In this document: positions 7,285 through 59,730 of the stretch, piece by piece
Position numbering within the stretch: position 1 is the first letter of the stretch
How the letters are laid out: each line of letters begins with the position of its first letter
Made by a program: the position numbers and the translations under genes
The notes under the pieces: model-generated
Told to the model about the DNA's origin: nothing
The model's input: only the letters and a program-made list of their open reading frames with translations
Database searches by the model: none
IMG/VR virus record: IMGVR_UViG_3300046787_000130
Location: 97,238-161,237 of that record
DNA: 64,000 nucleotides
DNA from: a virus
Direction: 5' to 3' (one strand)

Positions 7285-8238
7285 ATGGCAGAACAAAGAA
7301 CCTTAGTTTGCGTTTTTGCGCAAACTCGCGAACATGAATTAGTATGGAAGAATTTCAAGAAGAACGTATTAGATGCTCTCAATGCTGACTTGGCTCTTTG
7401 TATTGCTGTACCCGATGACTATGCTTACGCTAATCCATATTGGCAGCATGCTAAGTATAAATGGACTTGTCCAGAATATGAAAACTGGATGGATGCTTTT
7501 GAGTATGCCAAAAAAATTAGTTTCCCTCAAGTTGGTGATGATTGGAAAACTGCATTAACGGTTCCTGGTAATTGGATATCACCGCTAAATGGTAATCCTG
7601 CTGGCGGCGCACTTCAAATCTTTTTTAGATGGTTGCTTTGGCAGCATCTACAAAAAGATGACATTTTTGCGCAATATGATAGGGTTGTCTTTACGCGCTC
7701 TGATTTTATGTTCCTCTCTCCGCATCCTCCAATGGACTTGTTAAGCCAAGAGCATATTTGGCTTCCTAATGGAGAGTACTACGGTGGCGTAACAGACCGT
7801 CATGCAGTTCTTTCGAGAAAGAACGCTGAAGGATATCTTATGGGCATTATGAAAAACATAATGACAAATACGAGCCAATTTTGTGCATGTTTGCGGGAAG
7901 CGGGAAAAAACTACGATAGACATTATGCAACTGATACTGATGACCCTAATAAGGTAATTCCTGTTGGGCTAGAGATGTCTATCAAGGTTAATTTAGATTT
8001 TGAATTTCCGGTAGATACATGTAGATTCTTTCCATATATAATGTATACGGTAAGGTCAGCTGACGGTAAATCGCGCCATAATTATGGAACATGGTACGAA
8101 GAATTAGGCTACTTCATAAAAAGTCCTGAAGAACTGTTTAGCGCAAAAACTTACCAAGCAATTTACGTGAAACCGCAAGATTGGTATACTGTGCCAAGAG
8201 TAGAAGCCCCGCCATATTGGAACTCTACTTGGCCATGA
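7285..8238 (+). CDS. Putative glycosyltransferase-like protein, paralog A
   Basis: YDRVVFTRSDFMF and GGVTDRHAV motifs; glyco-operon context. Confidence 0.6.
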   Translation: MAEQRTLVCVFAQTREHELVWKNFKKNVLDALNADLALCIAVPDDYAYANPYWQHAKYKWTCPEYENWMDAFEYAKKISFPQVGDDWKTALTVPGNWISPLNGNPAGGALQIFFRWLLWQHLQKDDIFAQYDRVVFTRSDFMFLSPHPPMDLLSQEHIWLPNGEYYGGVTDRHAVLSRKNAEGYLMGIMKNIMTNTSQFCACLREAGKNYDRHYATDTDDPNKVIPVGLEMSIKVNLDFEFPVDTCRFFPYIMYTVRSADGKSRHNYGTWYEELGYFIKSPEELFSAKTYQAIYVKPQDWYTVPRVEAPPYWNSTWP

Positions 8239-8261
8239 CAATATAACAAAGGTGAATTGAT

Positions 8262-9140
8262 ATGCAACAACGAACGCTAGTTTGCGTAATCTCTCAAACA
8301 AGAGAACAAGAAATTGTTTGGGATAATTTCAAGAAGAATGTACTGGATACTTTAAACGCTGACTTAGCGTTATGTATTGCTGTATCAGACGATTATGATT
8401 ACTCTAATCCATATTGGCAGAACGCCAAATACAAGTGGACATGTCCAGAGTATAAAGATTGGACTGATGCGTTTGAGTTTGCGAGGCAAACGGATTTTCC
8501 AGAAGCAACTGATGACTGGAAGAAAATTCTAACCATCCCAAGCAACTGGATGTCGCCAATTAACGGGTATCCTGGCGCAGGGTCTATTCTGATTTTCTTC
8601 CGTTGGTTGTTATGGCACAACTTAAAGAAAGAAGACATCTTCAAGCACTATGACCGCATCATCATAACTCGATCAGACTTTATGTTCCTCTGTCCGCATC
8701 CTCCAATGGAACTGCTCCATCCAAATTATATTTGGGTGCCTGATGGTGAACACTATGGCGGCATTACTGACCGTTATGCCGTCTTGTCTGAAAAAAATGC
8801 TGATGGTTACTTCAGCATCATGAAGCATATCATGACCAACACGAACAATCTATATAATACTCTCAAGCAACTGCAAGATGAAATCCAAGATGAAATAAAT
8901 CTGGAAAAGTCTGTTATGAAAGTTTTAGAGTTTGAGTTTGGTCCTAACATATGCAGATTCTTTCCATATATAATGTATTCCGTTAGGTCTAAGGAAGGAA
9001 AAACCCGATGGCAAAGTGGTTACTGGGTTGAGGAATTAGGTTACTACATTAAGTATCCCTCAGAATTCGAACGCGCACAATTCTTTCAACAAATTATCGT
9101 AAAGCCAGAAGATTGGTATCGTATAGCGAGGCAAGAATGA
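8262..9140 (+). CDS. Putative glycosyltransferase-like protein, paralog B
   Basis: Colinear paralog of 7285..8238 (YDRIIITRSDFMF, GGITDRYAV). Confidence 0.6.
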   Translation: MQQRTLVCVISQTREQEIVWDNFKKNVLDTLNADLALCIAVSDDYDYSNPYWQNAKYKWTCPEYKDWTDAFEFARQTDFPEATDDWKKILTIPSNWMSPINGYPGAGSILIFFRWLLWHNLKKEDIFKHYDRIIITRSDFMFLCPHPPMELLHPNYIWVPDGEHYGGITDRYAVLSEKNADGYFSIMKHIMTNTNNLYNTLKQLQDEIQDEINLEKSVMKVLEFEFGPNICRFFPYIMYSVRSKEGKTRWQSGYWVEELGYYIKYPSEFERAQFFQQIIVKPEDWYRIARQE

Positions 9141-10363
9141 TTACAAAAAGTGAACACCTATCTACCTGTTTAATTACTGGTAGCCCAGTACAGAAGATAC
9201 TTGATTTAGGTCAGCATGCGTATGCAGATACCTTCATAGCAGAAAATCAACTTGATTTGTCTGAGCCAGTATTCCCACTACAATTGTTTATGAACTCAGA
9301 TTCAGGTTCAATTCAACTTGGTTACGTTAGCAAGGCTGAAGACCGCTACAATCTATACGGATACAGTTACACCTCAAGCAACTCTCAAACATCAAGAAAT
9401 CATTGGACTGAATATGCTACGACAATACAGGAGAAGTATCCATCTCCTAAACTAGCAGTAGAGATTGGAAGCAATGATGGATATCTAATCAATCAGTTTA
9501 AGTCAACAGCCAAGAGAGTGCTTGGAGTAGACTCATCTGAAGAAATGTGCAATCTTGCCAACGCAAATCATATTCCAACCATCTGCAATTTGTTTGATGA
9601 GACTGTTGCAGATAGTATTCGCGAAGAGTATGGTGAAGCCGATATTATCATGGCTAACAATGTTTTCAATCATGCTAACAATCCAGTTGGGTTTGCTAGA
9701 GGCGTATTGAAACTGTTGTCTGCTAATGGCGTGTTTGTATTTGAGGTTCCATCTTGGGCTGAGATGGTTACTAGCAACCGATTTGTTGATATGGTATACC
9801 ATGAACACATCAGTTACTTTACTGTGCGGAGTTGCTGGAATCTACTACAAGCCGCTGGTCTAGACATCGTTGATTTTAATGTTGTAAATTATCATGGTGG
9901 TAGTCTTAGAATTGAAGCAAAGAAGTCTACTGGGACGGGCATCATGCCCAAGAAGGTTGCTGATGCAATTCAAAAAGAAATTGAACTGGGGCTATTTGAC
10001 GTTAACTTCTATACAACATTTCAGCAAAAGTTAGAGCGCGATAGAAATGCTTGGTTGAACAAGTTCTATCAGATTCTAAATGATGAACCAGATGCCGTAA
10101 TAATCGGTGTTGGAGCAGCAGCAAAGGCTAACACTTGGCTCAACTGGCATCGACTAGATAAGACATTACTGCGTTGTATTACTGATGCATCTCAGTTTAA
10201 GCAAGGTAAGTATACGCCACTAACCCGCATCCCTATTGTCGATGACTCTGAATTTGCTAAGTATGATAAGCCATATGCGCTGGTTTTGAGTTGGAACATT
10301 GGAGATGCTCTAAAGGCTGCACTATTGAAAATTAATCCAAACGTGAGGTTCATTTCGCAATGA
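9137..10363 (+). CDS. NDP-hexose C-methyltransferase (TcaB9/EryBIII/NovU-like)
   Basis: EIGSNDG, ANNVFNH, YHEHISYF, HGGSLR, GAAAKANT, KQGKYTP, LSWN. Confidence 0.9.
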   Translation: MITKSEHLSTCLITGSPVQKILDLGQHAYADTFIAENQLDLSEPVFPLQLFMNSDSGSIQLGYVSKAEDRYNLYGYSYTSSNSQTSRNHWTEYATTIQEKYPSPKLAVEIGSNDGYLINQFKSTAKRVLGVDSSEEMCNLANANHIPTICNLFDETVADSIREEYGEADIIMANNVFNHANNPVGFARGVLKLLSANGVFVFEVPSWAEMVTSNRFVDMVYHEHISYFTVRSCWNLLQAAGLDIVDFNVVNYHGGSLRIEAKKSTGTGIMPKKVADAIQKEIELGLFDVNFYTTFQQKLERDRNAWLNKFYQILNDEPDAVIIGVGAAAKANTWLNWHRLDKTLLRCITDASQFKQGKYTPLTRIPIVDDSEFAKYDKPYALVLSWNIGDALKAALLKINPNVRFISQ

Positions 10364-10764
10364 AAGTCTATAACATCTATATGAATTTAGAAGAAGGTCT
10401 AAGTTCTTTTTCAGATAATCGCGGCAACATTACTGATATCTTCTTCAAGAAGTCTATCAATCATGGTTGTATTATTACTAACAATCCCGGTGCTGTTCGC
10501 GGTAATCATTACCACAATCATACTACTCAATACACCTACATTCTTTCAGGTAGTTTAGAATACTATTCATCTGAAGTTGATAGTAATCTCGTAGAACGTT
10601 ATGTTGCTGTTCCTGGTGATATGATTATAAGCGAACCTCGTGAGATTCATGCAATGCGCGCAGGTGAGGATGGTTGCGTTTTTATTGCTTTTGCAGAAGG
10701 TCCACGCGGCGGCGCTGACTATGAGACTGATACGGTAAGAGTTGAATCAATCATCTATGACTAA
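10360..10764 (+). CDS. Cupin sugar epimerase/isomerase (RmlC/FdtA-like)
   Basis: DNRG, RGNHYH, EIHAM cupin motifs. Confidence 0.8.
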   Translation: MKVYNIYMNLEEGLSSFSDNRGNITDIFFKKSINHGCIITNNPGAVRGNHYHNHTTQYTYILSGSLEYYSSEVDSNLVERYVAVPGDMIISEPREIHAMRAGEDGCVFIAFAEGPRGGADYETDTVRVESIIYD

Positions 10765-11344
10765 GGTTGCTGTAGTTTTTGGGGCAAGTGGCGGGATTGG
10801 AAACGCCACTTGCCTAGCATTGTCTGCTGAATATAAAGTCATTGCTATAACAAGAGAAGAAATTGACTTATTTGACAATCTAAGTTATAATCAGATATGC
10901 GCTTTCCTTACTGCTATGCAACCAGACTTAGTTGTCAACTGCGCAGGACATTTTGCGGACAATACTGAAACGCATAATGCTACGATGGACATCAATGTTG
11001 GCTCTAACTGGAGCATCATTAAACACTACATTGACAATCCATCATCCAAACCTGTTAAAGTTATCCTTGTTGGTTCAAGCGCATATCGTGAGGGCAGAAA
11101 GAACTACATGCTATATGCCGCAAGCAAAGCAGCACTATATAATTTGTGGCTAAGTTCTGCCGAATACTTTCAGAGTAGCAATGTTGCGGTTTCACTAATT
11201 AATCCAGTGAAGACCAAAACTAAGATGATGGACCCAGCATCAACTAGATTCATACTTCCGGAAGATGTAGCGCAAAAAATATTAGCAATGTCATCAACAG
11301 CATTAAGTGAGTGTATTGATTTAGAATACCCGAAGGAGTCGTAA
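10757..11344 (+). CDS. Short-chain dehydrogenase/reductase
   Basis: GASGGIG, VNCAG, SS, YAASK. Confidence 0.88.
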   Translation: MTKVAVVFGASGGIGNATCLALSAEYKVIAITREEIDLFDNLSYNQICAFLTAMQPDLVVNCAGHFADNTETHNATMDINVGSNWSIIKHYIDNPSSKPVKVILVGSSAYREGRKNYMLYAASKAALYNLWLSSAEYFQSSNVAVSLINPVKTKTKMMDPASTRFILPEDVAQKILAMSSTALSECIDLEYPKES

Positions 11345-12121
11345 ATGAAAGTTGGCGTTATTGGAAAAGGCGTAGTTGGTACTGCCGTGTATGAGGGGCT
11401 AAAGCATCTTGGTCATACAGTAAGTTTCTTTGATAAGAAGTATGATGGTTCCAAGGTAGAGGACATCCTAGACACCGATTGCGTTTTCGTATCAGTGCCT
11501 ACAAATCAAGCATCTAACGGCGATTGCGATACCAGCATTGTTGAATCTGTTGTAGCCGAATTAAATGATAGAAACTACAAGGGATTGATTGCTATTAAAA
11601 GCACCGTAATCCCCGGCACATCTGACAAGTTAGCATCCGCATATCCAAATCTGCGAATCTGCTCAGTACCTGAATTCCTCCGCGCTAAGACAGCACTAGC
11701 AGATTTTATGTACAATCATGACCTGCTTATTATTGGTAGCCATAATGATGCGGACTTTGATATAATTAAGAAGATTCATGGGCATCTACCAAAAGCAACA
11801 TCTTGCGTTAAGCCTGTTGAAGCAGAGATTGTAAAGTATTTTAACAACGTTAATCACAGTGTACAAATTATCTTTGCTAACATCTTCTATGATGTATGTA
11901 AAAAGGTTGGTGCTGATTACAATAATGTTTATGATGCTATCATCAAGAGAGAGTGCTTCAACTCATCATACCTAATGTGTAATGAAAACCTCAGAGGATT
12001 TGGCGGACACTGTTTGCCAAAGGATACTAGTGCTTGGGGCAACCTTGTTAAGAATCTTGGACTAGAGTATGCGACAATCCAAGCAGTTCTTTCAGACAAT
12101 GAGAAGATTAACAATGAGTAA
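11345..12121 (+). CDS. ugd: UDP-glucose/GDP-mannose 6-dehydrogenase family (short form)
   Basis: GKGVVG, VPT, IKSTV.PGT, PEFLR, AE.VKY..N, GFGGHCLPKD. Confidence 0.9.
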   Translation: MKVGVIGKGVVGTAVYEGLKHLGHTVSFFDKKYDGSKVEDILDTDCVFVSVPTNQASNGDCDTSIVESVVAELNDRNYKGLIAIKSTVIPGTSDKLASAYPNLRICSVPEFLRAKTALADFMYNHDLLIIGSHNDADFDIIKKIHGHLPKATSCVKPVEAEIVKYFNNVNHSVQIIFANIFYDVCKKVGADYNNVYDAIIKRECFNSSYLMCNENLRGFGGHCLPKDTSAWGNLVKNLGLEYATIQAVLSDNEKINNE

Positions 12122-13007
12122 AATTCTAGTGACTGGTGCCAGCGGTTTGCTGGGGACAGAATTCTGCCGACAACTTACTGAAGCAAATCATGAAGTTTGG
12201 GCTGTTGATAATCATTCACGTTCTAGTACTATTCCACCATGCAGTAAGTGGCTAAAGATTGACTTGAATGATGTAGCAGAACTAAATGCTTTGCCTACTG
12301 ATTTTGATTACATCTATCACTACAGTGCTATTAATGGTACAACAAACTTCTACAAGTATCCGACAAAGGTGCTAACAAATAATTTTGTTTGTGACATTAA
12401 CATATTTGAATTTGCATCACGTTGCGCTAACCTATCTAAGTTGGTATACGCATCAAGCAGCGAAATCGTAGCAGATGACCCAACCCGTCCAGTGCCTGAA
12501 AACACTGATGTGTTTATCAAGAACATTCATAATGCACGTTGGAGTTATCGTCTAGCCAAGATTACAAGTGAAAACTTTTTGGCTAACAGCAATCTGCCTT
12601 GGGTTGTTCTTCGTTACTTTAACGTGTATGGCGAGAATAGCAAGCAAGGGCACTTTCTAGGTGACCAGATTGCTAAGATTAAGAGTGGCGTATTTTCTGT
12701 TATTGGAAGCAACGAAACTAGGTCATTCTGTCATGTTCAGGATGCTATCTTAGCCAGCATCTATGTAGCCGAGAATACTGTTAATCAAGTTGTTAACATT
12801 GGAAATGATAGAGAGATTAGCATTGGTGATGCTGTCAAGGTTATTGCTAAAGAACTTGGTCATCCAGATGCTAACTTTGAAGAACTTCCTAGCATGCCTG
12901 GTTCAGTTGAAAATAGACGCCCCGACATCACCAAACTTAGAAGCATCATGCAACATTACACCCCAATGTCATTTGAAGATGGCATTAGAACAATACTCAA
13001 GAGGTAA
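12114..13007 (+). CDS. NAD-dependent nucleotide-sugar decarboxylase/epimerase (extended SDR)
   Basis: TGASGLLG, ASSSE, RWSYRLAK, RYFNVYG, TRSFCHV, RRPDI. Confidence 0.85.
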   Translation: MSKILVTGASGLLGTEFCRQLTEANHEVWAVDNHSRSSTIPPCSKWLKIDLNDVAELNALPTDFDYIYHYSAINGTTNFYKYPTKVLTNNFVCDINIFEFASRCANLSKLVYASSSEIVADDPTRPVPENTDVFIKNIHNARWSYRLAKITSENFLANSNLPWVVLRYFNVYGENSKQGHFLGDQIAKIKSGVFSVIGSNETRSFCHVQDAILASIYVAENTVNQVVNIGNDREISIGDAVKVIAKELGHPDANFEELPSMPGSVENRRPDITKLRSIMQHYTPMSFEDGIRTILKR

Positions 13008-13010
13008 TTT

Positions 13011-13724
13011 ATGAATCCGTGTATCGTATCATTTTTTATGAATAACATTGACCGTGAAACTGTAGACTTACAAGCAGCTGTTGTGCAGAAGTTTAACAAG
13101 AGCAATGTGAAGCATTACCTCATTAAGGTTGATGCTCCTCATGGAATTGCTATTGATTACTTCTGGGCAATGAATGGTCATAAACCGCATACGTTAGAAA
13201 CATATGATATCAAAGCAACTCTAGACCATGATGTCATTCTGTTTCTAGACATTGATTGTATTCCTCTTCATGAAGATTCAATTGATACTTACCTTGAAGC
13301 AGCCGCAGCTGGAAAGATTATGGGTAATGCCCAACGGTCTAATCATATTGAAAACAATCAGCATGTCTTTGCTGCGCCATCAGCTGCTGCCATCTCACTT
13401 GAGACATTTCTAAAACTTGAAAAGCCTTCAGGATTAGAAACAAAGCGCGGTGATGTTCTTGAAGAGTATACCTTTGCCGCCGAAAAGAGTGGCATCCAAG
13501 TTGACCTTTCAATGCCATTACGTTATGATAATCCTCCTAACCGTTACGATTGGGAAAAAGACCAGCCTCCATATTGGGCACTTGCTGATGGCATGCCTGT
13601 ATATGGTATGGGAACAACTTATGGCGTTGACGGTAAGGAATTGTTCTTCCATAATTTCCAAATTCGAATGGAAGGACAACAGGAAAAGTTTCAGACAAAG
13701 TGTAAGGAAATTCTAAATGGCTAA
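13011..13724 (+). CDS. Putative GT-A glycosyltransferase
   Basis: ILFLDIDCIP DxD motif; RGDV; end of glyco operon. Confidence 0.65.
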   Translation: MNPCIVSFFMNNIDRETVDLQAAVVQKFNKSNVKHYLIKVDAPHGIAIDYFWAMNGHKPHTLETYDIKATLDHDVILFLDIDCIPLHEDSIDTYLEAAAAGKIMGNAQRSNHIENNQHVFAAPSAAAISLETFLKLEKPSGLETKRGDVLEEYTFAAEKSGIQVDLSMPLRYDNPPNRYDWEKDQPPYWALADGMPVYGMGTTYGVDGKELFFHNFQIRMEGQQEKFQTKCKEILNG

Positions 13725-13911
13725 TCGTAGTGATTTTCAGCGCGCAGTACTCCCCCGACAAATCAAAAAGTTTTTGCTTGGTGGTAAGTTTAAAGATGCG
13801 CACGAGTATGGTTCAATGAAACGATTGTTTATTGAAGCCCACAGCATCAATCGTACTGCACGCAACCGTCGCACAACACTTCAACTAGAGACTTCTGACG
13901 CAGAAGGATGA
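13717..13911 (+). CDS. Hypothetical protein
   Basis: SD AAGGA; coupled ORF. Confidence 0.65.
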   Translation: MANRSDFQRAVLPRQIKKFLLGGKFKDAHEYGSMKRLFIEAHSINRTARNRRTTLQLETSDAEG

Positions 13912-14159
13912 ACACTCTAGTTGAACTAAGGACTCTGTTCAGAGAGAACAGAGTTCCTGTAACCGAATATGGTGGTTGGTATTTAAAATGCGGTAATGAT
14001 TCTTGGGGCATAGTTGACGGAGAATACTATAAAAACTACGTCAAGGTTGACAAGAACTTTATCAAACAATATGTAATTGATAAGAGAATGCCTGCGAGAG
14101 CAAGAGCATTTAAAATTAATCCAAATAGGGGATATGAAGATGCCAGTGAGAGTGATTAA
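13908..14159 (+). CDS. Hypothetical protein
   Basis: ATGA overlap. Confidence 0.55.
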   Translation: MNTLVELRTLFRENRVPVTEYGGWYLKCGNDSWGIVDGEYYKNYVKVDKNFIKQYVIDKRMPARARAFKINPNRGYEDASESD

Positions 14160-14436
14160 ATCCGTAACCGGAGAAGAAGTGCTTGGCGATGTTGAAGAGA
14201 TTCAAGGGGGATATCTAGTCTCCAATCCTGTAATTGTTATGCTGCGCGGAATGCCGCAAGGCGGACAGATGGGGCTTGAGTTTGTTCCATACATTGCTTA
14301 TGCAGCAATCAAGTCTGTAGAGTTTGCTACGGATAAGGTAATTCACGTTTTAGAAGTAGACGATTCAGTTAAAAACCAGTATAATACTATCTTTGGCGGC
14401 ATTGTTGTGCCACCTAAGAATATTCTACTGGGGTAA
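14134..14436 (+). CDS. Sm-like/SH3-barrel protein upstream of DNA polymerase
   Basis: K.VTGEEVL..V...NP...Y...FGGIVVP pattern; position before gp43. Confidence 0.65.
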   Translation: MKMPVRVIKSVTGEEVLGDVEEIQGGYLVSNPVIVMLRGMPQGGQMGLEFVPYIAYAAIKSVEFATDKVIHVLEVDDSVKNQYNTIFGGIVVPPKNILLG

Positions 14437-14439
14437 AAC

Positions 14440-51462: not shown

Positions 51463-51463
51463 C

Positions 51464-51637: not shown

Positions 51638-51870
51638 TTATATTCATTGTATTTGCGTTGCTGTTCTTTGCGTTTGGTTGGTATACAACTGCTGCTATCG
51701 CATTTACTCTTGGCGCACTGCTAGAGTATTTTGCGAGCAAGCACCCACCGGGAGATGATGATGGAGACATTTAATGTCATGTTTGGAATGTCACTTGGTG
51801 CGCTATCTGTAGCAATCATCGTGTACATTGTGTACAAGTTCATTCGTCACATTTTCTTTTTCAATCCGCT

Positions 51871-52233: not shown

Positions 52234-52427
52234 GTCTAGTTAAGTTGGATTGTTTTACTGATAGTGAATGGACTGAATATGTAAAGGAAGTTGTAGTTGT
52301 TAAGGCTGGCAAGACCTTTGATGTTTGTTCAGATTGTACGATTTGCTTTCAGCGAAAAATGCGAGAACAAGGACGATGTAACTTTCCCATGAAAAACCTG
52401 AAGAAAGTTGTTGAGTATCGTAACTAA
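52230..52427 (+). CDS. Small Cys-containing hypothetical protein
   Basis: CSDC..FQ..M...GRC. Confidence 0.6.
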   Translation: MSLVKLDCFTDSEWTEYVKEVVVVKAGKTFDVCSDCTICFQRKMREQGRCNFPMKNLKKVVEYRN

Positions 52428-52480
52428 TTGATTTGATGACGAAAAAAAAGTTTTACTTTTCACGCGAACTAGGGTATCAT
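52421..52480 (+). promoter_or_regulatory. Promoter of ncRNA/tRNA cluster with upstream IHF-consensus site
   Basis: TAACTAATTGATT; TTTACT-17bp-TATCAT. Confidence 0.55.
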
Positions 52481-52660
52481 TCTTATCTAACGTGAAAAAA
52501 GGGATATATATAGATATCCCACCACGAGTCCAAGTTGGCTTGTGTATGCTCTTTACAAAACAGATTCTCAAAGGGTGTCCCACTACCCGCCCCACCTACT
52601 AAAAACACTTGGGGCTGGATTGCGCATGCGGTCGGCTGAACATTCGTTTGGCTTAAATGT

Positions 52661-52719
52661 GGATATATCTCTGATGAGCCAGTGAGACTCTGGCGAAACA
52701 TATGGCTGTTGATGTATTT
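52661..52719 (+). ncRNA. Type I hammerhead ribozyme candidate
   Basis: CTGATGA-stem II GCCAG/CTGGC-GAAA, stem III ACA/TGT, GUU site, stem I GGATATATC/GATGTATTT. Confidence 0.6.
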
Positions 52720-52930
52720 TTGTTATGCTCCAGCCAGTGTAAGATAACAGCAAACATGACCTTGCGGTGTAATTTTGCTGATGCCTATAGGCAAGAGGAT
52801 GAATGATACATTGCTGATTGCCCAGTGCACTGCGCTTTCAGGTATCAAACGTAAACCGCATTGCGCGAGGACAGGCGCACTATAAATGTAGACCGCAGTT
52901 CTGATACTACAGAAAAAATCGGCATGATTT

Positions 52931-53005
52931 TGGCGCGTAGCACAATGGCAGTGCAAATGACTGTTAATCATTAGGTTGCTGGTTCGAATCCAGCCGTGCC
53001 AGCCA
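52931..53005 (+). tRNA. tRNA-Asn(GTT)
   Basis: Cloverleaf, CCA end. Confidence 0.93.
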
Positions 53006-53149
53006 GTTGATGATTAGACATAGACTGAGTGCGCTAGCAATGTCCAATTTGGGTGCGAAGCCCAATACTTTTTTCGCAACAGCAAGACAGGGGTCGCGCC
53101 CAGTGCCTAGTGTCAAGTGCTTGTCGGTTGACATGTTGCGTTTTTATTT

Positions 53150-53233
53150 GCGCGAGTGGTGTAATGGCAGCCACGACGGTCTTAGAAGCCGTTGCCGAAA
53201 GGCGTGAGAGTTCGAGTCTCTCCTTGCGCACCA
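53150..53233 (+). tRNA. tRNA-Leu(TAG)
   Basis: Cloverleaf, long V-arm, CCA. Confidence 0.93.
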
Positions 53234-53255
53234 ATTTTGTTTCTCTAGTTTAGAG

Positions 53256-53579
53256 GTGTTTGTTATGGGCTGCAACCCGTTTCTCAGAGGGTCAGATTTT
53301 ATTCCGCCATCGATATTGATGCGAAATTCCGTTAACCCAGACCCTTCTTCTTTTAAAGTAAAAAAGGTTTACACAGCCAATGAACTATTTGTCTCATTGG
53401 TAAATTACCCCAACTGTACAACATTTGAGGGCAATAAGATATTAGTTACGAATTACGATGTTAGAGAAAAAATCAAACTTGACCCACATTTTCATAATGG
53501 CAGTGGTCTAATAGCAAGATTTGAACCTACAGATACAGGCTGGGAAGCCGCTGTATGGTTCGTCACTAATGCCACATAA
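53256..53579 (+). CDS. Hypothetical protein within tRNA cluster
   Basis: NPDP..F...YPNCTTFEGNKIL...LDPHF...ARF.P...GW. Confidence 0.65.
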   Translation: MFVMGCNPFLRGSDFIPPSILMRNSVNPDPSSFKVKKVYTANELFVSLVNYPNCTTFEGNKILVTNYDVREKIKLDPHFHNGSGLIARFEPTDTGWEAAVWFVTNAT

Positions 53580-53586
53580 GTTTAAT

Positions 53587-53661
53587 GGTCCCATCGTCTA
53601 GCGGTCAGGACATCACCCTTTCACGGTGATGACACGGGTTCGATTCCCGTTGGGACTACCA
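53587..53661 (+). tRNA. tRNA-Glu(TTC)
   Basis: Cloverleaf, CCA. Confidence 0.93.
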
Positions 53662-53668
53662 ATTTTAT

Positions 53669-53756
53669 GGAGAGTTGCCAGAGAGGCTAATTGGCGCTGT
53701 TTGCTAAACAGATGGACGTAATCGTCACACAGGTTCAAATCCTGTACTCTCCGCCA
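53669..53756 (+). tRNA. tRNA-Ser(GCT)
   Basis: Long V-arm, G73, CCA. Confidence 0.92.
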
Positions 53757-53763
53757 AGTTTAC

Positions 53764-53840
53764 GGGATAGTGGCACAGTTGGTTAGCGCAGACGCTTGAT
53801 AAGCGTCAGGTCGAAGGTTCAAGTCCTTCCTATCCCACCA
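53764..53840 (+). tRNA. tRNA-Ile(GAT)
   Basis: Cloverleaf, CCA. Confidence 0.93.
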
Positions 53841-53855
53841 ACTATATAAAGTATT

Positions 53856-53930
53856 GGGCTGTTAGTGATAATGGGAGCACGTCGCGTTTGCATCGCGAAG
53901 GTGAGAGTTCGATTCTCTCACGGTCCACCA
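53856..53930 (+). tRNA. tRNA-Ala(TGC)
   Basis: G3:U70 pair, CCA. Confidence 0.92.
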
Positions 53931-53933
53931 AAT

Positions 53934-54042
53934 TTGATTGTTTGTAAGCCACAGGCACGCAACGCCTGAGTAACTGCGCCAAAAGAAAACTTCAGTTCTA
54001 GACTCCTGAAGGTGAGACGCAGCAAATAGTGCAAACAATCAA
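53934..54042 (+). ncRNA. Structured RNA candidate
   Basis: 12-bp closing stem TTGATTGTTTGT/GCAAACAATCAA with internal stems. Confidence 0.5.
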
Positions 54043-54069
54043 CCTAACGTGCCATCTAGTCAATGGCTA

Positions 54070-54266
54070 GTCTACCCAGACGATGAGAAGCGGTGTGATA
54101 ACCGTAGGGTGGTTCCAGTCTAACCGAACTGGCGTTGGCAACACGACAGTCCTGTATGGGTCGAGGAGTGGATGGAAGGTAAGAGCGTGGTGTTAGTCGA
54201 GCGGGTGAAAACCAATGCATGGAATACACCTAGTGATACTATAGTTACCACCGCATACAGGAAGCA
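54070..54266 (+). ncRNA. Multi-stem structured RNA candidate
   Basis: TCCTGTATG/CATACAGGA long-range stem, several hairpins incl. GNRA loops; no ORF. Confidence 0.55.
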
Positions 54267-54270
54267 ATTT

Positions 54271-54355
54271 GGGTGAACGCCGAAGTTGGAGAGTCGGGGC
54301 AGACTGTAAATCTGTTGTTTAGGCTGAGTAGGTTCGAATCCTACTTCACCCACCA
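54271..54355 (+). tRNA. tRNA-Tyr(GTA)
   Basis: Long V-arm, CCA. Confidence 0.92.
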
Positions 54356-54361
54356 TATTAT

Positions 54362-54435
54362 GGGAGTGAAACATTAAAGTGATGTAACGGACTTTTAATC
54401 CGTAAAAGAGGGAGCATTACCCTCCACTCCTACCA
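54362..54435 (+). tRNA. tRNA-Lys(TTT), atypical T-loop
   Basis: ACGGA-CTTTTAA-TCCGT; T-loop AGCATTA; CCA. Confidence 0.85.
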
Positions 54436-54445
54436 CCTTAAAATA

Positions 54446-54534
54446 GGGACTAAAGCCGTATTGGTCGCAGGCAGCGAACTCATAATTCGTCCTCTTAAAG
54501 AGCATTCTCGGTTCGAACCCGAGTGGTCCCACCA
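54446..54534 (+). tRNA. tRNA with CAT anticodon and long variable arm (Ile2 or Met, identity uncertain)
   Basis: GCGAA-CTCATAA-TTCGT then CCTCTTAAAGAGCATT V-arm; CCA. Confidence 0.85.
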
Positions 54535-54549
54535 ACTATATAAAAGTAT

Positions 54550-54626
54550 CGGGCATTAGCACAGACTGGTAGTGCGTCTGCTTTGGGAGCAGAAGGTCAC
54601 AGGTTCAAATCCTGTATGCCCGACCA
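54550..54626 (+). tRNA. tRNA-Pro(TGG)
   Basis: Cloverleaf, CCA. Confidence 0.93.
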
Positions 54627-54635
54627 ATTTACAAT

Positions 54636-54719
54636 GCGAGTGTGATGGAATGGTATACATAGCAGACTTAAAATCTGCCGCTTTCGGGCTTGCGGGTTCG
54701 AATCCCGCCACTCGTACCA
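54636..54719 (+). tRNA. tRNA-Leu(TAA)
   Basis: Long V-arm, CCA. Confidence 0.93.
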
Positions 54720-54725
54720 TATTGA

Positions 54726-54799
54726 GCAGAGTTGGCATATTGGTTGTGTCCCAGTCTTCCAAACTGGCTAAACGGGTTCGATTCCCGTACTCTGCTCCA
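54726..54799 (+). tRNA. tRNA-Gly(TCC)
   Basis: U73, CCA. Confidence 0.92.
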
Positions 54800-54805
54800 A
54801 GTTTA

Positions 54806-54882
54806 GACTCCGTAGTTCAGTTGGATAGAACAACAACCTTCTAAGTTGTGGGTCACAGGTTCGAATCCTGTCGGGGTCGCCA
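54806..54882 (+). tRNA. tRNA-Arg(TCT)
   Basis: Cloverleaf, CCA. Confidence 0.93.
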
Positions 54883-54896
54883 ATACAGGAAATAGC

Positions 54897-55319
54897 ATGG
54901 ACATCACTAAAGAAGATATGATGAAGCGTCATGCTATTGCTTACCCTATGGAAGTAGGTGCGCCAAAGTTTGACCTAGTTCCTGTTGAGAAAGAAAAAGA
55001 CCAGATGATAAACATTGCTAGGCTAAGTGCTCAGCAAGAGTATGACAGGATTATGGAAGTTGTTGCTGTGTTGCAGAAGCAAGCAGATGGAATTAAAAGA
55101 CGCCTAGATATAACTGATATGGTCTACAACGCCAAGTATAATTTTAAGATTATTCCCGGCAAGACTTATTATTTGATTTTTCAAAAAAGAAAGAGTATAA
55201 TGATACTGTCTCCAATGGGACCAAATGATTGGTCTAGTGGACCACCAGTAGATTACGAATACAAAGCCAAGGTAGTTTGCTTAGGTGACTACTCTTGGAT
55301 GGAAGATACACGCTCTTGA
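54897..55319 (+). CDS. Hypothetical protein (DUF2452-like)
   Basis: YPMEVGAPKF...AKYNF....GKTYYL...LSPMGPNDW...D.SW; SD AGGA. Confidence 0.65.
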   Translation: MDITKEDMMKRHAIAYPMEVGAPKFDLVPVEKEKDQMINIARLSAQQEYDRIMEVVAVLQKQADGIKRRLDITDMVYNAKYNFKIIPGKTYYLIFQKRKSIMILSPMGPNDWSSGPPVDYEYKAKVVCLGDYSWMEDTRS

Positions 55320-55387
55320 AGCATTGCTGGCGATGCGCGGGATTTGTAACCCCGAGATAGACTGTTCGATTCAGTCCGAGAGCACCA
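55312..55387 (+). tRNA. tRNA-Thr(TGT)
   Basis: Cloverleaf, CCA; overlaps upstream stop codon. Confidence 0.88.
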
Positions 55388-55469
55388 ATCGCGACGGTTC
55401 TACCATCGTTAATCGGTAGCGCAGTCTTGGCTGCGAGAAAAGTCCCTTGACGACGACCAAGATTTATTT

Positions 55470-55544
55470 GTTGCTGTGGTTGAGTGGTTAGACAGCTGAC
55501 TGCAAATCAGTTTCACGCAGGTTCAAATCCTGTCAGCAACTCCA
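55470..55544 (+). tRNA. tRNA-Cys(GCA)
   Basis: U73, CCA. Confidence 0.9.
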
Positions 55545-55560
55545 CCTATATAGAATGTAT

Positions 55561-55634
55561 GCCTCGTTAGTTAAATGGTATAACTCCGCTTTTACACGGC
55601 GGTTTCGGCAGTTCGATTCTGTCACGAGGTACCA
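55561..55634 (+). tRNA. tRNA-Val(TAC)
   Basis: Cloverleaf, CCA. Confidence 0.92.
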
Positions 55635-55640
55635 AACAGT

Positions 55641-55715
55641 TGCAGGATAGTTCAGCAGCAGAACACCGGACTCATAATCCGGGGGTCACGGGTGCGAGTC
55701 CCGTTCCTGCTACCA
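55641..55715 (+). tRNA. tRNA-Met(CAT), initiator-like
   Basis: 1:72 mismatch (T:T), CCGGA/TCCGG anticodon stem, CCA. Confidence 0.85.
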
Positions 55716-55719
55716 CTTT

Positions 55720-55793
55720 GCGGGTATGATGTAATGGTTGCCTGTGACCTTGCCAAGGTTATCGTGCGAGTTCGATTCTCGCTACCCGCTCCA
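55720..55793 (+). tRNA. tRNA-Gly(GCC)
   Basis: U73, CCA. Confidence 0.92.
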
Positions 55794-55829
55794 TTTTGAG
55801 AATCTGTTTTCCTATTTAAGGATGAATAT

Positions 55830-56252
55830 ATGAAACGTTTGCTTGCTACACTAGCCTTAATCCCATCTCTTGCTCTTGCTGAAGAGCCCAGCAAGTGGAC
55901 AACATTTACAAAGATGCCTGATGGCACGGTTTGGGAGTTCAAGAACAACTCTCTAAATGTAATTACTAACGACAGCAAGCAGATGTTTTGGATTGTTCAG
56001 TTTAGAACACACCAAGCGGGCAAGACGGTCTTTAATTTTGTAAAGGTTGCTGTTCCAGTAACTGCATGTAAGGTTCAGTCTGGTCAACTTGTTCTTGTTG
56101 GTATGGACAACGTTGAAAAAGCAAAGATTGACTTTGTATTTGACGGTGGCACTCTTGCGTCAAACATTGCGCAATCCGTCTGCCGTGCTGGCGACAAGGT
56201 ACTACAAAAGTATGCTGAAGAAGCAGAGAAGCCTGCTGAAGTAAGTACTTGA
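55830..56252 (+). CDS. Secreted/periplasmic hypothetical protein
   Basis: Signal peptide MKRLLATLALIPSLALA; two Cys. Confidence 0.75.
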   Translation: MKRLLATLALIPSLALAEEPSKWTTFTKMPDGTVWEFKNNSLNVITNDSKQMFWIVQFRTHQAGKTVFNFVKVAVPVTACKVQSGQLVLVGMDNVEKAKIDFVFDGGTLASNIAQSVCRAGDKVLQKYAEEAEKPAEVST

Positions 56253-56277
56253 CTCTTCAAGCAAACAGATATATAAT
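56249..56277 (+). promoter_or_regulatory. Sigma70 promoter before tRNA-Gln
   Basis: TTGACT-17bp-TATAAT. Confidence 0.8.
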
Positions 56278-56287
56278 TATCGTATAT

Positions 56288-56361
56288 TGAGGGGTCGTCT
56301 AACGGCAGGACGACGGACTTTGAATCCGTCTATCTAGGTTCAAATCCTAGCCCCTCAGCCA
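56288..56361 (+). tRNA. tRNA-Gln(TTG)
   Basis: U1-A72, G73, CCA. Confidence 0.93.
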
Positions 56362-56366
56362 TTTAA

Positions 56367-56456
56367 GGATGTGTGCCAGAGCCTGGTTTAATGGAACGGT
56401 CTTGAAAACCGTCGATGGGAAACCATCCGTAGGTTCGAATCCTACCACATCCGCCA
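56367..56456 (+). tRNA. tRNA-Ser(TGA)
   Basis: Long V-arm, G73, CCA. Confidence 0.93.
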
Positions 56457-56476
56457 TTTTATATTAGGAGATTGAA

Positions 56477-57016
56477 ATGATTGAAGAAGGCAAGAAGGTT
56501 CCTCAGAATGTTGTATTCAAGACTCGTGTTCGTGATGAGTCTGTTGGTGGACCAAATCCTTATCGTTGGGAAGATGTAAAGAGCGGCGACTTGTTCAAGC
56601 GTCGGCGCGTTGTTCTATTCTCACTGCCAGGTGCATTCACTCCAACCTGCTCAACCTATCAGTTGCCTGACTTTGAGAAACTCTATCCTGAGTTTACTCT
56701 CCATAAGATTAGTAAGATTTACTGCGTATCTGTAAATGATGCGTTTGTAATGAATGCTTGGGCAAAGCAGCAGGAACTGAAGAATGTTGAGGTCATTCCT
56801 GACGGCAGCGGACTCTTCACCAAGAAGATGGGCGCACTGGTCAAGAAGGATAATCTTGGTTTTGGTCAGCGCAGTTGGCGTTATGCTGCTGTTATCAAGA
56901 ATGGCGTCATTGAGAAGTTGTTTGTTGAGCCGGGTCTTGAAGACAACTGCCCTGCTGACCCATATGGTGAGACTTCCCCTCAGAATGTTCTGAAGTGGCT
57001 TCAAAACAATGCGTGA
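56477..57016 (+). CDS. Peroxiredoxin (Prx5/AHP1-type)
   Basis: LPGAFTPTCS, SVNDAFVMNAW, GFGQRSWRY. Confidence 0.94.
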   Translation: MIEEGKKVPQNVVFKTRVRDESVGGPNPYRWEDVKSGDLFKRRRVVLFSLPGAFTPTCSTYQLPDFEKLYPEFTLHKISKIYCVSVNDAFVMNAWAKQQELKNVEVIPDGSGLFTKKMGALVKKDNLGFGQRSWRYAAVIKNGVIEKLFVEPGLEDNCPADPYGETSPQNVLKWLQNNA

Positions 57017-57449
57017 AGAACTAGATAATGAACTTTGCGAAAAGTATCCTGAGATTTTTCGTGACCGTCACGCACCAGTAACTCAGACTCCTATGGGGTT
57101 TGGGTTTGAGTGCGGTGACGGTTGGTTTGACTTAATTGATGCTCTCTGTAAGAGAATTCAGAACTATCTAGATTGGGAACGTAAGTATCCCCCGCCTCAT
57201 GATGAAGAGATTGAGCAAGTTGTTGCCGCTCAAGTCAAAGAGAAGTTTGGCGGTATGCGTTTCTACTTTGACGGTGGCAATGACGTCATTCGCGGAATGG
57301 TCATGATGGCAGAAGAGATGTCATACAGCATCTGTGAAGAATGCGGCAACAAAGGTAGGCTGCGCGGTAGCGGTTGGGTTATAACCCGATGCGATGAGCA
57401 TTATACCAATGATGCTATTTCTTACGAGGAGCAACTTTCTTCTTCTTGA
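57009..57449 (+). CDS. Conserved phage hypothetical protein
   Basis: ECGDGW, QVKEKFGGMRFY, CEECG. Confidence 0.75.
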   Translation: MREELDNELCEKYPEIFRDRHAPVTQTPMGFGFECGDGWFDLIDALCKRIQNYLDWERKYPPPHDEEIEQVVAAQVKEKFGGMRFYFDGGNDVIRGMVMMAEEMSYSICEECGNKGRLRGSGWVITRCDEHYTNDAISYEEQLSSS

Positions 57450-57813
57450 CCGCAGTCTTCTTGGCTGCACCTTTTTGGGGTGCTACTTTCATAAAGTGAA
57501 ATTTGTGAAAGTATACAACCCAAGCAAACAGAAAGGCTAGACCAACATTCATCAACACTTCGCCAACTGGTGCTTCTATAGCAGTGACGTAATCAGCGCC
57601 ACGTGGTACAATTACAGTATATACGGTATTTGTCGCATTCCATAGTGAACACGCGATGATAGATACTAATGTTGTCTTTAATGACCAGTGCTGTAGGATG
57701 CTCCACTTTTGGACAATGCTTGTAGCATTGCCGAACAGCAGAACAAAGAATCCAGTCATACCAATACAAATTAGTAAGTTGGCAAAGATGTTGATGATTT
57801 GAAAGAAACTCAT
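57415..57813 (-). CDS. Three-TM membrane protein with Lys-rich tail
   Basis: Hydrophobic segments; SD AAGGGG; coupled to 57817..58194. Confidence 0.7.
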   Translation of the reverse strand: MSFFQIINIFANLLICIGMTGFFVLLFGNATSIVQKWSILQHWSLKTTLVSIIACSLWNATNTVYTVIVPRGADYVTAIEAPVGEVLMNVGLAFLFAWVVYFHKFHFMKVAPQKGAAKKTAVKKKKVAPRKK

Positions 57814-57816
57814 GCT

Positions 57817-58194
57817 CTATCCCCTTGGCTTTTTCTTCCCTGATGTTTTCTTTTTGGCGGCTTTACGCTTTGAAGGTTTACGTTTAGGGGCAGTCTGTTC
57901 TTCCATATCAGGCATAAGTTTCTTGATTGCGAAATCAATACCGCTCAAGCCAAGGAAGCCCAGAATAAACGCAATTCCAAAGGTAAGGTTCTGGTTGGTG
58001 AGATTCAGGGAATCTACAACAACTGGAGTTATATAGTTAGCGGAACCAACGCCCGCAGCAATGCTTAGGGCTACACTACTGAGTCGTGTAGCATGACCTT
58101 TTTTGATAGTTAATAAAGAACCGAACAATCCAGACACAATTAATCCTGCATTAATACCGACTTCTTGTAGGATATTTTGCATCCTTTTCCCCAA
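57817..58194 (-). CDS. Holin-like three-TM membrane protein with Lys-rich tail
   Basis: GLFGSLL, AGVGSANYITP, AFILGFLG; minus-strand CTAAATA at 58211-58217. Confidence 0.65.
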   Translation of the reverse strand: MGKRMQNILQEVGINAGLIVSGLFGSLLTIKKGHATRLSSVALSIAAGVGSANYITPVVVDSLNLTNQNLTFGIAFILGFLGLSGIDFAIKKLMPDMEEQTAPKRKPSKRKAAKKKTSGKKKPRG

Positions 58195-58225
58195 GTCTAG
58201 GTAGATACCGTATTTAGGAGTTCAT

Positions 58226-58867
58226 ATGAAGGTAAACATTGGACCATACAAGAATTGGATTGGACCATATCAGATTGCTGAAAAGATTCTGTTTTGGAAG
58301 GATAAGCATGAAGATGATTCTGTCCATAAGTTTGGCGCATGGCTATCTGGCGATGATAATAAGCCATCTTTGCTGCTACGTTTCTGTCAGTGGGTTGAGT
58401 CCAAGCGCGAACGCAAGGTGAAGATTCATATTGACAACTATGACACGTGGAATATGAACAGCACTCTTGCCATGATTATCCTGCCGATGCTCAAGCAACT
58501 GAAGGCAACCAAGCACAGCTCTCCCTTTGTTGACAACAAGGATGTTCCCAAGAATCTACGGTCAACGGCTGCTCCCCCGAAAGAAAATGAATGGGATATT
58601 GATGCCAATCATGAAGCCCGTTGGGATTGGGTGCTGGATGAGATTATCTGGACCTTTGAGCAACTGAATGATGAGGATAATGATTCTCAGTTTCATTCCG
58701 GCGTAAATGATTATGCTTTTGTAAAAAAGGATAATGGTTATGTTGAAATAGTTAATGGTCCAAATCATACCGCTAAATTTGATTATGAGGGATATAAAAA
58801 GCATCATAATCGGATTTCAAAAGGATTATTGCTGTTTGGAAAGTATTATCAGGGATTATGGGATTGA
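58226..58867 (+). CDS. Conserved phage hypothetical protein
   Basis: IDNYDTWNM..TLA.II.PMLKQLK...RWDWVLDE...LFGKYY..LWD; SD AGGAG. Confidence 0.8.
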   Translation: MKVNIGPYKNWIGPYQIAEKILFWKDKHEDDSVHKFGAWLSGDDNKPSLLLRFCQWVESKRERKVKIHIDNYDTWNMNSTLAMIILPMLKQLKATKHSSPFVDNKDVPKNLRSTAAPPKENEWDIDANHEARWDWVLDEIIWTFEQLNDEDNDSQFHSGVNDYAFVKKDNGYVEIVNGPNHTAKFDYEGYKKHHNRISKGLLLFGKYYQGLWD

Positions 58868-58877
58868 CTCTGAATAG

Positions 58878-58910
58878 ATGCCCCTAGATTCACGTCAGGG
58901 GCATTTTTTC
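58878..58910 (+). terminator. Intrinsic terminator
   Basis: ATGCCCCT/AGGGGCAT stem then T run. Confidence 0.75.
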
Positions 58911-58974
58911 CGTCTGGGGATGCTACGGGGTGGCTGAAATCTGCTTGGCACCTGCGCAATTCTACGCAGCCTAG

Positions 58975-59041
58975 TAAGGGATTGATTTTACAGAAGTTTT
59001 TCCTATCGACTTTTTCTTAGATTTCAGTACAATCTTAAGTA
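58975..59041 (+). promoter_or_regulatory. Repeated early promoter copy 5
   Basis: TAAGGGATTGATT, TCGACT 59006, 16 bp, TACAAT 59028. Confidence 0.8.
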
Positions 59042-59053
59042 TAGAAACAAGGA

Positions 59054-59344
59054 ATGAATATGAACCGCGACATCACCAATCCCGATGACATGACTTTTAC
59101 AGCGTTCGACAATCTGCTGTCCCGTGCTACGTTCACGCTGCTCCCTGAGAATGCGCGCAATGCGTATGCTGGTGCCAGCATGCGTTGCCTGTACGCCATC
59201 GTGGATGGGCTTGAAATCCTGTGCGAAGATGGCGTGTTCAACGTCTACGGCATGCGCGATGATGCTAATGATTTTGCACCGTGGTGCGTATCGTTTGCGC
59301 CTGCGCTGGGCAAGCGTCCTGGTTGCCGCGAGCAGATTCTGTAA
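59054..59344 (+). CDS. Hypothetical early protein
   Basis: Between two promoter repeats; GC-richer. Confidence 0.65.
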   Translation: MNMNRDITNPDDMTFTAFDNLLSRATFTLLPENARNAYAGASMRCLYAIVDGLEILCEDGVFNVYGMRDDANDFAPWCVSFAPALGKRPGCREQIL

Positions 59345-59406
59345 GCGGTTGATTCTACAAGAATTTTTCGCATTGACTTTTTCCTAGATTTCAGTACAAT
59401 ATAAGT
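59342..59406 (+). promoter_or_regulatory. Repeated early promoter copy 6
   Basis: TAAGCGGTTGATT, TTGACT 59373, 16 bp, TACAAT 59395, ATG 6 nt later. Confidence 0.8.
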
Positions 59407-59730
59407 ATGGTAGCAAAACGCAAAAAGCGGTCAGACCGCAACTACATCCTGTATGTGCTGGAGAACAAGCACACGGGCAGCACCTATATCGGGCTGTCTG
59501 CCGTGATTGGCTCTGCCAAGGTACGCACGCTCAAGGTGCGCTTCAAGCGCCATGTCTCCAAGGCTTTCACGGAAGCCAAGGCATGGACTCTCCACAAAGC
59601 CCTGCGCAAGCATCCTATGGAGTGTGACTGGAATCGCACCATTCTTCAGGTCATTCGTGGTCGCAAAGCGGCGTACCAGTTGGAGCGTCAGCTGATTGCT
59701 GAGCACCAGCCTGACCTCAACACGTTTTAA
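59407..59730 (+). CDS. Stand-alone GIY-YIG nuclease domain protein
   Basis: ILYVL...TYIGL, RFKRH, ERQLI, LN. Confidence 0.8.
   Translation: MVAKRKKRSDRNYILYVLENKHTGSTYIGLSAVIGSAKVRTLKVRFKRHVSKAFTEAKAWTLHKALRKHPMECDWNRTILQVIRGRKAAYQLERQLIAEHQPDLNTF

Follow-up and report, generated by a model that had tools for sequence, protein, structure and literature searches.

Phage enzymes of the TET/JBP family oxidise thymine in DNA after replication, in a sequence-specific manner that depends on the base 3' of the T; one phage T-dioxygenase prefers NTC and a ParB-dependent one prefers NTG (PMC13229309, 2026). The ParB-dependent class is linked to genes for an amidotransferase, a P-loop kinase and an amino-acid:DNA transferase, and the authors leaned towards an epigenetic-like regulation as the role of the phage T-dioxygenases (PMC13229309). 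Phages M6, ViI and phiW-14 carry hypermodified thymidine, and the sites of their DNA that resist restriction are enriched in TG/TC; the kinase of M6 acting on 5-hydroxymethyluracil (5hmU) in DNA modifies TG, and protection may also come from a T beside the site, for example in tGCCGGC (PMC6449724). We analysed a stretch of 64,000 nucleotides (termed the window), which forms the final 64 kb of the linear 161,237 bp virus record IMGVR_UViG_3300046787_000130 of IMG/VR (positions 97,238 to 161,237; the whole record is termed G000 and has a CheckV completeness of 96% and 42.6% GC). The word AGCT is removed from this DNA nearly everywhere except inside CAGCTG, and a putative thymine-modification cassette lies upstream of the window.

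A full count of the window gave 20 AGCT, comprising 17 CAGCTG, two CAGCTC and one TAGCTG. A preliminary description made by eye had listed 17 CAGCTG coordinates and the TAGCTG (AGCT at 49146), all of which were exact when re-counted; its statement that AGCT occurred in a single other context was right about TAGCTG and overlooked the two CAGCTC (AGCT at 27058 and 58517). It had also expected roughly 200 AGCT, and the computed expectations for the window are 236 from base composition, 296 from a first-order and 218 from a second-order Markov model; the depletion holds under Markov models, and the observation is stronger than had been stated. Over the whole of G000, AGCT occurs 63 times, as CAGCTG in 57 cases, CAGCTC in three, TAGCTG in two and CAGCTT in one, and each of the 63 has a C before or a G after on at least one strand. 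The chance of at least 57 of 63 AGCT carrying both flanks is 1e-57, and that of all six other AGCT carrying one C or G flank is 0.006.

As the main null we used 200 synonymous-codon shuffles of coding DNA, in which the proteins and the codon usage of the genome were held fixed, and divided AGCT into two-flank sites (CAGCTG), one-flank sites (C before or G after) and no-flank sites (neither). In the genes of the window CAGCTG occurred 15 times against 16.9 +/- 3.8 in the shuffles, one-flank sites 3 times against 92 +/- 8.5 and no-flank sites never against 126 +/- 9; the corresponding figures for all coding DNA of G000 are given in Table 1. CAGCTG is therefore more than spared, since its frequency is exactly neutral, and for a word to be fully exempt at neutral frequency, something must shield it from whatever selects against AGCT. 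The nine other flank contexts were all purged, which bears out the earlier proposal of strong selection on AGCT as a 4-bp word, of the kind an AluI-like nuclease would exert. The alternative raised alongside it, a set of degenerate or 6-bp nucleases, is disfavoured because non-palindromic contexts of AGCT were purged as well.

AGCT was removed through synonymous choice at codon junctions. GCT is the favoured alanine codon, with a baseline share of 47% (1462/3118) after codons ending in a base other than A, and this share was kept after xCA and before G (45/102), whereas in the other three contexts following an A-ending codon it fell to 1/167, 2/190 and 0/352, the last being the context with no C or G flank. 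Serine before T was encoded by AGC twice and by AGT 159 times, and leucine following AAG or GAG was always TTR and never CTN. A coding constraint was considered as the reason for the survival of CAGCTG and was rejected, AGCT being synonymously removable in all three frames and GCT standing at its baseline in xCA-GCT-G. We also rejected the idea that the one-flank survivors are recent mutants of CAGCTG: reasoning from the counts, approximately 340 mutational paths lead from CAGCTG flanks as compared to thousands from near-AGCT words, and because the latter supply far more paths, mostly no-flank sites would be predicted.

Other short palindromes were purged as well. In coding DNA of G000, 59 AGCT were observed against 675 in the shuffles, 2 GATC against 463 and 4 GGCC against 298, and such numbers, far under an expectation that preserves composition and codon usage, are a case of restriction-site avoidance, even stronger for GATC and GGCC than for AGCT. 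The only two GATC of G000 (about 500 expected) both lie in the window. GGCC occurs 9 times against about 300 expected, and the five native copies, three of them in the window, are all TGGCCA. The four other GGCC all fall within 0.9 kb of the start of the record. Positions 1-1200 of G000, outside the window, also carry a GTCGAC and have 58-62% GC; they encode a DUF3310 protein and a helicase C-terminal fragment that is cut off where the contig ends, and this GC-rich start probably represents foreign or recently acquired DNA or a chimera of the assembly. Native GGCC survivors were TGGCCA in 52 of 52 cases when G000 was taken together with the related genomes G001, G002, G003 and G009. Most TGGCCA encode Trp-Pro, the sole dipeptide that is unable to avoid GGCC. 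In G000 to G003 this dipeptide was spelt with the proline codon CCA in 36 of 36 cases, although CCA makes up 43-66% of proline codons, and the dipeptide itself was depleted (4 against 20.7 expected in G000, 0 against 11.6 in G005). Since Trp-Pro is both depleted and always written TGG-CCA, TGGCCA is tolerated only where needed, which fits a partial protection by the base just outside the 4-bp site.

An AGCT followed by G and a GGCC preceded by T each contain the step TG, which reads CA on the opposite strand, and the 6-bp palindromes follow the same line. AGCGCT, CCGCGG, CCTAGG, CGTACG, CTCGAG and TACGTA, none of them nested on AGCT, GATC or GGCC, are absent from G000, and GTCGAC, ATCGAT, GGTACC, ACGCGT and ACCGGT are depleted 5- to 16-fold. 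The surviving GGTACC of G000 have T/A flanks at 8 of 10 positions, and the surviving GCTAGC, AGCGCT and AGTACT of the relatives are mostly TG-flanked. Among the six genomes of the group that encode a TET/JBP dioxygenase (termed TET+: G001, G002, G003, G005 and G009, six with G000), none of the 30 genome-by-motif purges concerned a 6-mer palindrome with an internal TG/CA, which is present in about a third of the unpurged ones (Fisher P = 2e-5; motifs nested on purged 4-mers were left out, and the 30 purges are not independent and represent 16 distinct motifs). In other genomes 7 of the 19 purged 6-mer motifs have TG/CA, six of these in G007. These observations point to one short TG/CA-step rule rather than to several nested 6-bp methylases.

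Relatives of the dioxygenase are encoded in 141 IMG/VR contigs, and the flank rule recurred among them (Table 1). Summed over the five TET+ relatives, no-flank AGCT numbered 7 against 1122 expected and one-flank AGCT 77 against 736 expected, and one-flank sites were favoured over no-flank sites in six of six TET+ genomes, including G002 and G003. The latter two purge CAGCTG and yet their survivors keep one C or G flank, so that protection must operate per strand with a context of about one flanking base. As controls we used G007 and G006, related T4-like contigs, both partial, in which the dioxygenase gene was not found (termed TET-less); their AGCT depletion was uniform, with no flank bias. 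Other purges vary within the group: CCGG was almost wholly removed from relatives (0/178, 3/200 and 1/98, among G001, G002, G003, G005 and G009) and not from G000 (159/193), whereas GATC was purged in G000 and not in those five, which indicates that restriction pressures differ between close relatives. The control G006 (L199-L201) has an observed/expected ratio of 0.09 for AGCC/GGCT, with AGCT at 7/126 and GGCC at 10/35, much as if an RGCY (CviJI-like) specificity were being avoided.

Table 1. AGCT (and, where indicated, GGCC) sites by flank class, observed/expected; per-genome rows cover whole or long contigs, and the expectation for G000 coding DNA is that of the synonymous shuffles.
Sequence set	Two-flank	One-flank	No-flank
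G000 coding DNA	CAGCTG 53 / 56.9 +/- 7.1	6 / 261 +/- 14	0 / 362 +/- 17
G001 (dioxygenase present)	CAGCTG 21/34	10/187	0/256
G002 (dioxygenase present)	CAGCTG 1/43	12/283	0/465
G003 (dioxygenase present)	CAGCTG 0/19	5/124	0/195
G005 (dioxygenase present)	CAGCTG 21/16	33/92	2/130
G009 (dioxygenase present)	CAGCTG 5/8	17/50	5/76
G007 (dioxygenase not found)	CAGCTG 0/12	23/82	29/141
G006 (dioxygenase not found)	CAGCTG 0/6	3/43	4/77
26 AGCT-depleted loci, pooled	CAGCTG 22/76	46/465	1/692
35 GGCC-depleted loci, pooled	TGGCCA 36/73	7/271	1/252

The cassette is located at 91,064-95,397 of G000, 1.8 kb before the start of the window, and comprises, in this order, genes for a Tet_JBP dioxygenase, a glutamine amidotransferase, an amino-acid:DNA transferase, a P-loop nucleotide kinase 3 and a glycosyltransferase-like protein, the last followed downstream by a deoxynucleoside monophosphate kinase gene and gp45. 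The Pfam matches were Tet_JBP (E 2e-23), GATase_6, ADDT (PF18724, E 1e-21, 77.8 bits for a cut-off of 26.2) and Ploopntkinase3 (PF18751, 28.3 bits for a cut-off of 27), the last two marking the amino-acid:DNA transferase and the P-loop 5hmU-DNA kinase of the thymidine hypermodification pathway. The predicted dioxygenase has 446 amino acids with a 220-residue N-terminal domain; its residues H293, D295 and H346 (HxD...H) and R359 are invariant among 23 relatives, and its structural model, predicted with a pLDDT (a model confidence score) of 81, resembles TET enzymes in complex with DNA (Foldseek E 5e-10). With its catalytic motif intact, this TET/JBP dioxygenase is the putative source of 5hmU. 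A search of G000 found no ThyA-type hydroxymethylase of deoxyuridine monophosphate (dUMP), and ThyX is present, from which it follows that thymine would enter the DNA unmodified and that any 5hmU would be made on DNA after replication. At the dioxygenase loci of relatives (L007-L086), gene content is variable in the interval from the dioxygenase to the conserved glycosyltransferase-like gene, being the amidotransferase, ADDT and kinase in one variant, a GT1-family glycosyltransferase in another and a TET-associated glycosyltransferase (PF20691) in a third, which suggests that different final modifications are built among relatives on the same 5hmU starting point. Cassette type was tried as a predictor of CAGCTG tolerance in a hand tally and gave no clean separation.

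On balance we consider it slightly more probable than not that thymine hypermodification directed to TG shields sites in this genome and that whatever the modification cannot cover has been purged. From the site statistics, the gene content and the clade pattern we infer a modification of thymine, TG as its context and a block to nucleases as its result. A TG context holds 26% of all T. Restriction pressure would come from AluI-like (AGCT), MboI/DpnII-like (GATC) and HaeIII-like (GGCC) nucleases and from several 6-bp nucleases of the host range, and the phage would oppose it with two defences. The first would be post-replicative hypermodification by the upstream cassette, mainly of T followed by G, and the second the removal of uncovered sites, as a rule through the choice among synonymous codons and in the case of Trp-Pro even at the cost of altering the protein. 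In CAGCTG the T of AGCT precedes G on both strands, so that a bulky base would be present on both strands within the site, which would become invisible to the nuclease and evolve neutrally. One-flank sites (CAGCTH) would be modified on one strand and barely tolerated, those with no C or G flank would be unprotected and hence absent, and in TGGCCA the modified T would lie just outside GGCC and protect partially.

Several points weigh against this interpretation. TGATCA is fully purged (0 against 32), which would require that the GATC nuclease is not stopped by a modified T next to its site, and CTGCAG, GTGCAC and CCATGG, which contain TG, are still depleted about 3-fold. The purged C-initial sites of the relatives (CTTAAG, CCTAGG) survive mainly with T...A flanks, that is with a TC step, and AGCTC is never tolerated despite these TC-step survivors, so that the context rule is not clean. 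The ParB_N domain (PF02195) is absent throughout G000, and some ParB-less members of Clade C1 were reported inactive in vitro (PMC13229309). The N-terminal 220 residues of the dioxygenase have no Pfam match and belong to no assigned family; there was no ParB-like chain among the fold-search matches listed, which were all 2-oxoglutarate dioxygenase folds, the N-terminal domain not having been searched alone. The cultured phages Cr30, DLP6 and C48C1 were examined and the flank-exception pattern was not seen: of DLP6 and C48C1, whose TET homologues are more distant, the former has 0 GGCC in 50 kb with no TGGCCA exception and the latter has no flank bias. The TET+ phages form one clade with hosts that may be shared, which confounds phage and host effects, and the TET-less controls studied in depth are just two partial contigs. 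Finally, the modification of G000 DNA is a proposal read from sequence. A general rule in which both TG and TC would protect was rejected, since TC inside GAGCTC, AGCTC, GATC and CTCGAG is not protective in G000.

The same exceptions would arise if the nucleases themselves discriminated flanks (recognising DAGCTH, VGGCCB and the like, and cutting poorly at C/G or T/A flanks), in which case no modification would be needed. A homodimeric enzyme that contacts the flanks would be expected to produce the gradient from no-flank through one-flank to two-flank sites, and the hosts of the clade may share enzymes. We nevertheless consider this unlikely, because the same exclusion would have to hold in at least eight unrelated specificities (AGCT, GGCC, GGTACC, GCTAGC, AGCGCT, AGTACT, CTTAAG and CCTAGG), and flank discrimination by so many different nucleases is unparsimonious. 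It gives no account of the missing TG/CA inside purged palindromes, AGCT-depleted TET-less phages show no flank bias, and the exact neutrality of CAGCTG would require complete exclusion and not a mere preference.

N4-methylation of CAGCTG by an enzyme of the M.PvuII type blocks AluI. A PvuII-like methyltransferase, from the host or unrecognised in the phage, could therefore modify the inner C and block an AluI-like nuclease only there, leaving CAGCTG exactly neutral while every other AGCT is purged, as is the case in G000. This was the shield proposed in the preliminary description, and we now regard it as rather improbable. Profile searches of G000 with PF01555 (N6/N4, includes M.PvuII), PF00145 (C5, includes M.AluI) and PF02086 (Dam-type) gave zero matches, and in a motif scan of G000 PCQ was absent and the sole [DNS]PP[YFWH] was an SPPF in a 125-amino-acid frame antisense to the gp44 clamp-loader gene, so that plausible methylase genes are lacking by motif as well. 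The six remaining AGCT of G000 are all one-flank sites (P = 0.006, as above), and in G002 and G003, where CAGCTG is purged, only one-flank sites survive, an outcome which a 6-bp CAGCTG methylase cannot produce. TGGCCA, TGGTACCA and others would moreover demand extra methylases, and the absence of TG/CA from purged palindromes would be left unexplained.

A short-motif modification encoded by the host (CA/TG or CTG, for example), gained at each passage and conserved across the hosts of the clade, would account for the strand-wise TG/CA rule no less well than the phage pathway, and the pattern is limited to one phage clade, whose host group may be shared. Host methylases that recognise CA/TG within only 2-3 bp are not known to us, and the phage has its own cassette for thymine modification, the type of which has a published TG preference; we accordingly attach little credence to a host origin. 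Selection for CAGCTG as a functional motif such as a binding site, despite cutting, could be suggested by its 57 copies spread through G000 but is effectively refuted and hardly credible, given that their number equals the neutral expectation without excess, no flanking conservation or logo is found, 43 of the 57 are plain xCA-GCT-Gxx codon junctions, the sites turn over between relatives 93% identical, and 57 cuttable sites would render the purge of the rest pointless.

The surviving sites of the window and its ThyX gene are listed in Table 2.

Table 2. Coordinates of surviving sites and related features in the window (position 1 is its first nucleotide; a dot denotes no strand).
Feature	Position	Strand	Remarks
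Whole-window purge	1..64000	.	AGCT 20 vs 218-296, GATC 2 vs 231-257, GGCC 3 vs 112-127 expected
CAGCTG (tolerated AGCT)	8057..8062	.	
CAGCTG	13075..13080	.	
CAGCTG	13306..13311	.	
CAGCTG	13381..13386	.	
CAGCTG	20324..20329	.	
CAGCTG	22348..22353	.	
CAGCTG	26091..26096	.	
CAGCTG	26366..26371	.	
CAGCTG	32467..32472	.	
CAGCTG	36426..36431	.	
CAGCTG	36606..36611	.	
CAGCTG	39313..39318	.	
CAGCTG	40117..40122	.	
CAGCTG	46031..46036	.	
CAGCTG	46980..46985	.	
CAGCTG	55493..55498	.	within tRNA-Cys gene (55470-55544)
CAGCTG	59689..59694	.	
CAGCTC, one-flank AGCT	27057..27062	.	
CAGCTC, one-flank AGCT	58516..58521	.	
TAGCTG, one-flank AGCT	49145..49150	.	
TGGCCA (surviving GGCC)	8230..8235	+	Trp-Pro as TGG CCA
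TGGCCA (surviving GGCC)	27554..27559	+	Trp-Pro as TGG CCA
TGGCCA (surviving GGCC)	61191..61196	.	within TTGGCCAA; not in the crude gene set used
GATC	8671..8674	.	context cGATCa, one of the genome's only two
GATC	39516..39519	.	context tGATCt, second of the genome's only two
Surviving GGTACC, then A (GGTACCA)	55628..55633	.	inside ARAGORN tRNA-Val span (55561-55634)
ThyX thymidylate synthase	38123..38788	+	Thy1 PF02511, E 2e-44, 135402-135995 of G000

The major capsid protein of G000 shares about 60% identity with its counterparts in Stenotrophomonas phage DLP6, T4-like cyanophages and Pelagibacter phage HTVC008M, and by this sequence criterion the phage is a new lineage of T4-like myoviruses; a comparison of its DNA with the phage collection gave no match. 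A two-piece tmRNA is encoded outside the window at 11195-11550 of G000 (L001), with the tag peptide ANDSNYEMRIAA and scores of 126 bits for Rfam beta_tmRNA (cut-off 84) and 138 bits for tmRNA_permuted; its predicted Betaproteobacteria type is a weak hint at a betaproteobacterial host. Some words were over-represented in G000 coding DNA relative to the synonymous shuffles, namely TGCGCA (75 against 32), GCGC (589 against 381), CATATG and GATATC, possibly because codon usage has shifted in the course of eliminating AGCT, GGCC and GATC. CACA/TGTG was the most depleted non-palindromic 4-mer of G000 (observed/expected 0.36, first-order Markov) and of G001 (0.42), the depletion being milder in the two TET-less controls (0.68-0.72); it could reflect avoidance of adjacent modified T.

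We are evenly divided on the broader proposition that a whole clade of uncultured T4-like phages uses TET/JBP-initiated hypermodification of T before G and that their genomes evolved as the exact complement of its coverage. Were it true, the sequence specificity of a hypermodification could be read for hundreds of uncultured phages from nothing more than their genome sequences, leftover restriction sites serving as a readout of modified positions and giving motif predictions for uncultivable phages, including the 141 contigs of this clade. Sequence-specific phage T-dioxygenases would gain a concrete anti-restriction role, and partial modification and site avoidance would complement each other in a single defence whose strength suffices to shape proteins.

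Site avoidance and TG-biased thymidine hypermodification are known separately, and their interlocking footprint, made up of neutral sites under modification, erasure elsewhere, Trp-Pro avoidance and a motif readable from sequence, appears undescribed; a literature search, limited in extent, found no description of context-defined exceptions to site avoidance. When compared to the PvuII restriction-modification system (CAGCTG, N4-methylcytosine), G000 spares the word that is the PvuII site, but it has no methylase gene and its relatives protect single-flank sites even where CAGCTG is purged. As in the restriction-site avoidance of virulent phages, AGCT, GATC, GGCC and many 6-bp palindromes are extremely rare through synonymous choice; the exceptions in G000 are, however, set by one flanking base per strand, and the avoidance reaches the protein level (Trp-Pro). 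The ParB-dependent Clade C1 5mYOX enzymes, such as 5mYOX176 (PMC13229309), share with the predicted G000 enzyme the TET/JBP fold, an intact HxD...H, linked amidotransferase, kinase and amino-acid:DNA transferase genes and the lack of a C5-methylase partner, and a published member prefers NTG. The G000 protein, known from its sequence and model, differs from them in being encoded by a genome without ParB, and its 446 amino acids compare to about 290-300 for ParB-independent members. The thymidine hypermodification of M6, ViI, phiW-14 and SP10 (PMC8989533, PMC6449724) differs in that 5hmU would come in G000 from a TET/JBP dioxygenase, ThyX being present and the dUMP hydroxymethylase absent, and in that protection in G000 looks TG-specific, TC inside a site not being protective. 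The published pathway acts after replication on part of the thymines with a TG/TC preference and blocks Type II nucleases, including through a flanking T, and G000 shares with it the P-loop kinase, the ADDT/aGPT-Pplase and the amidotransferase.

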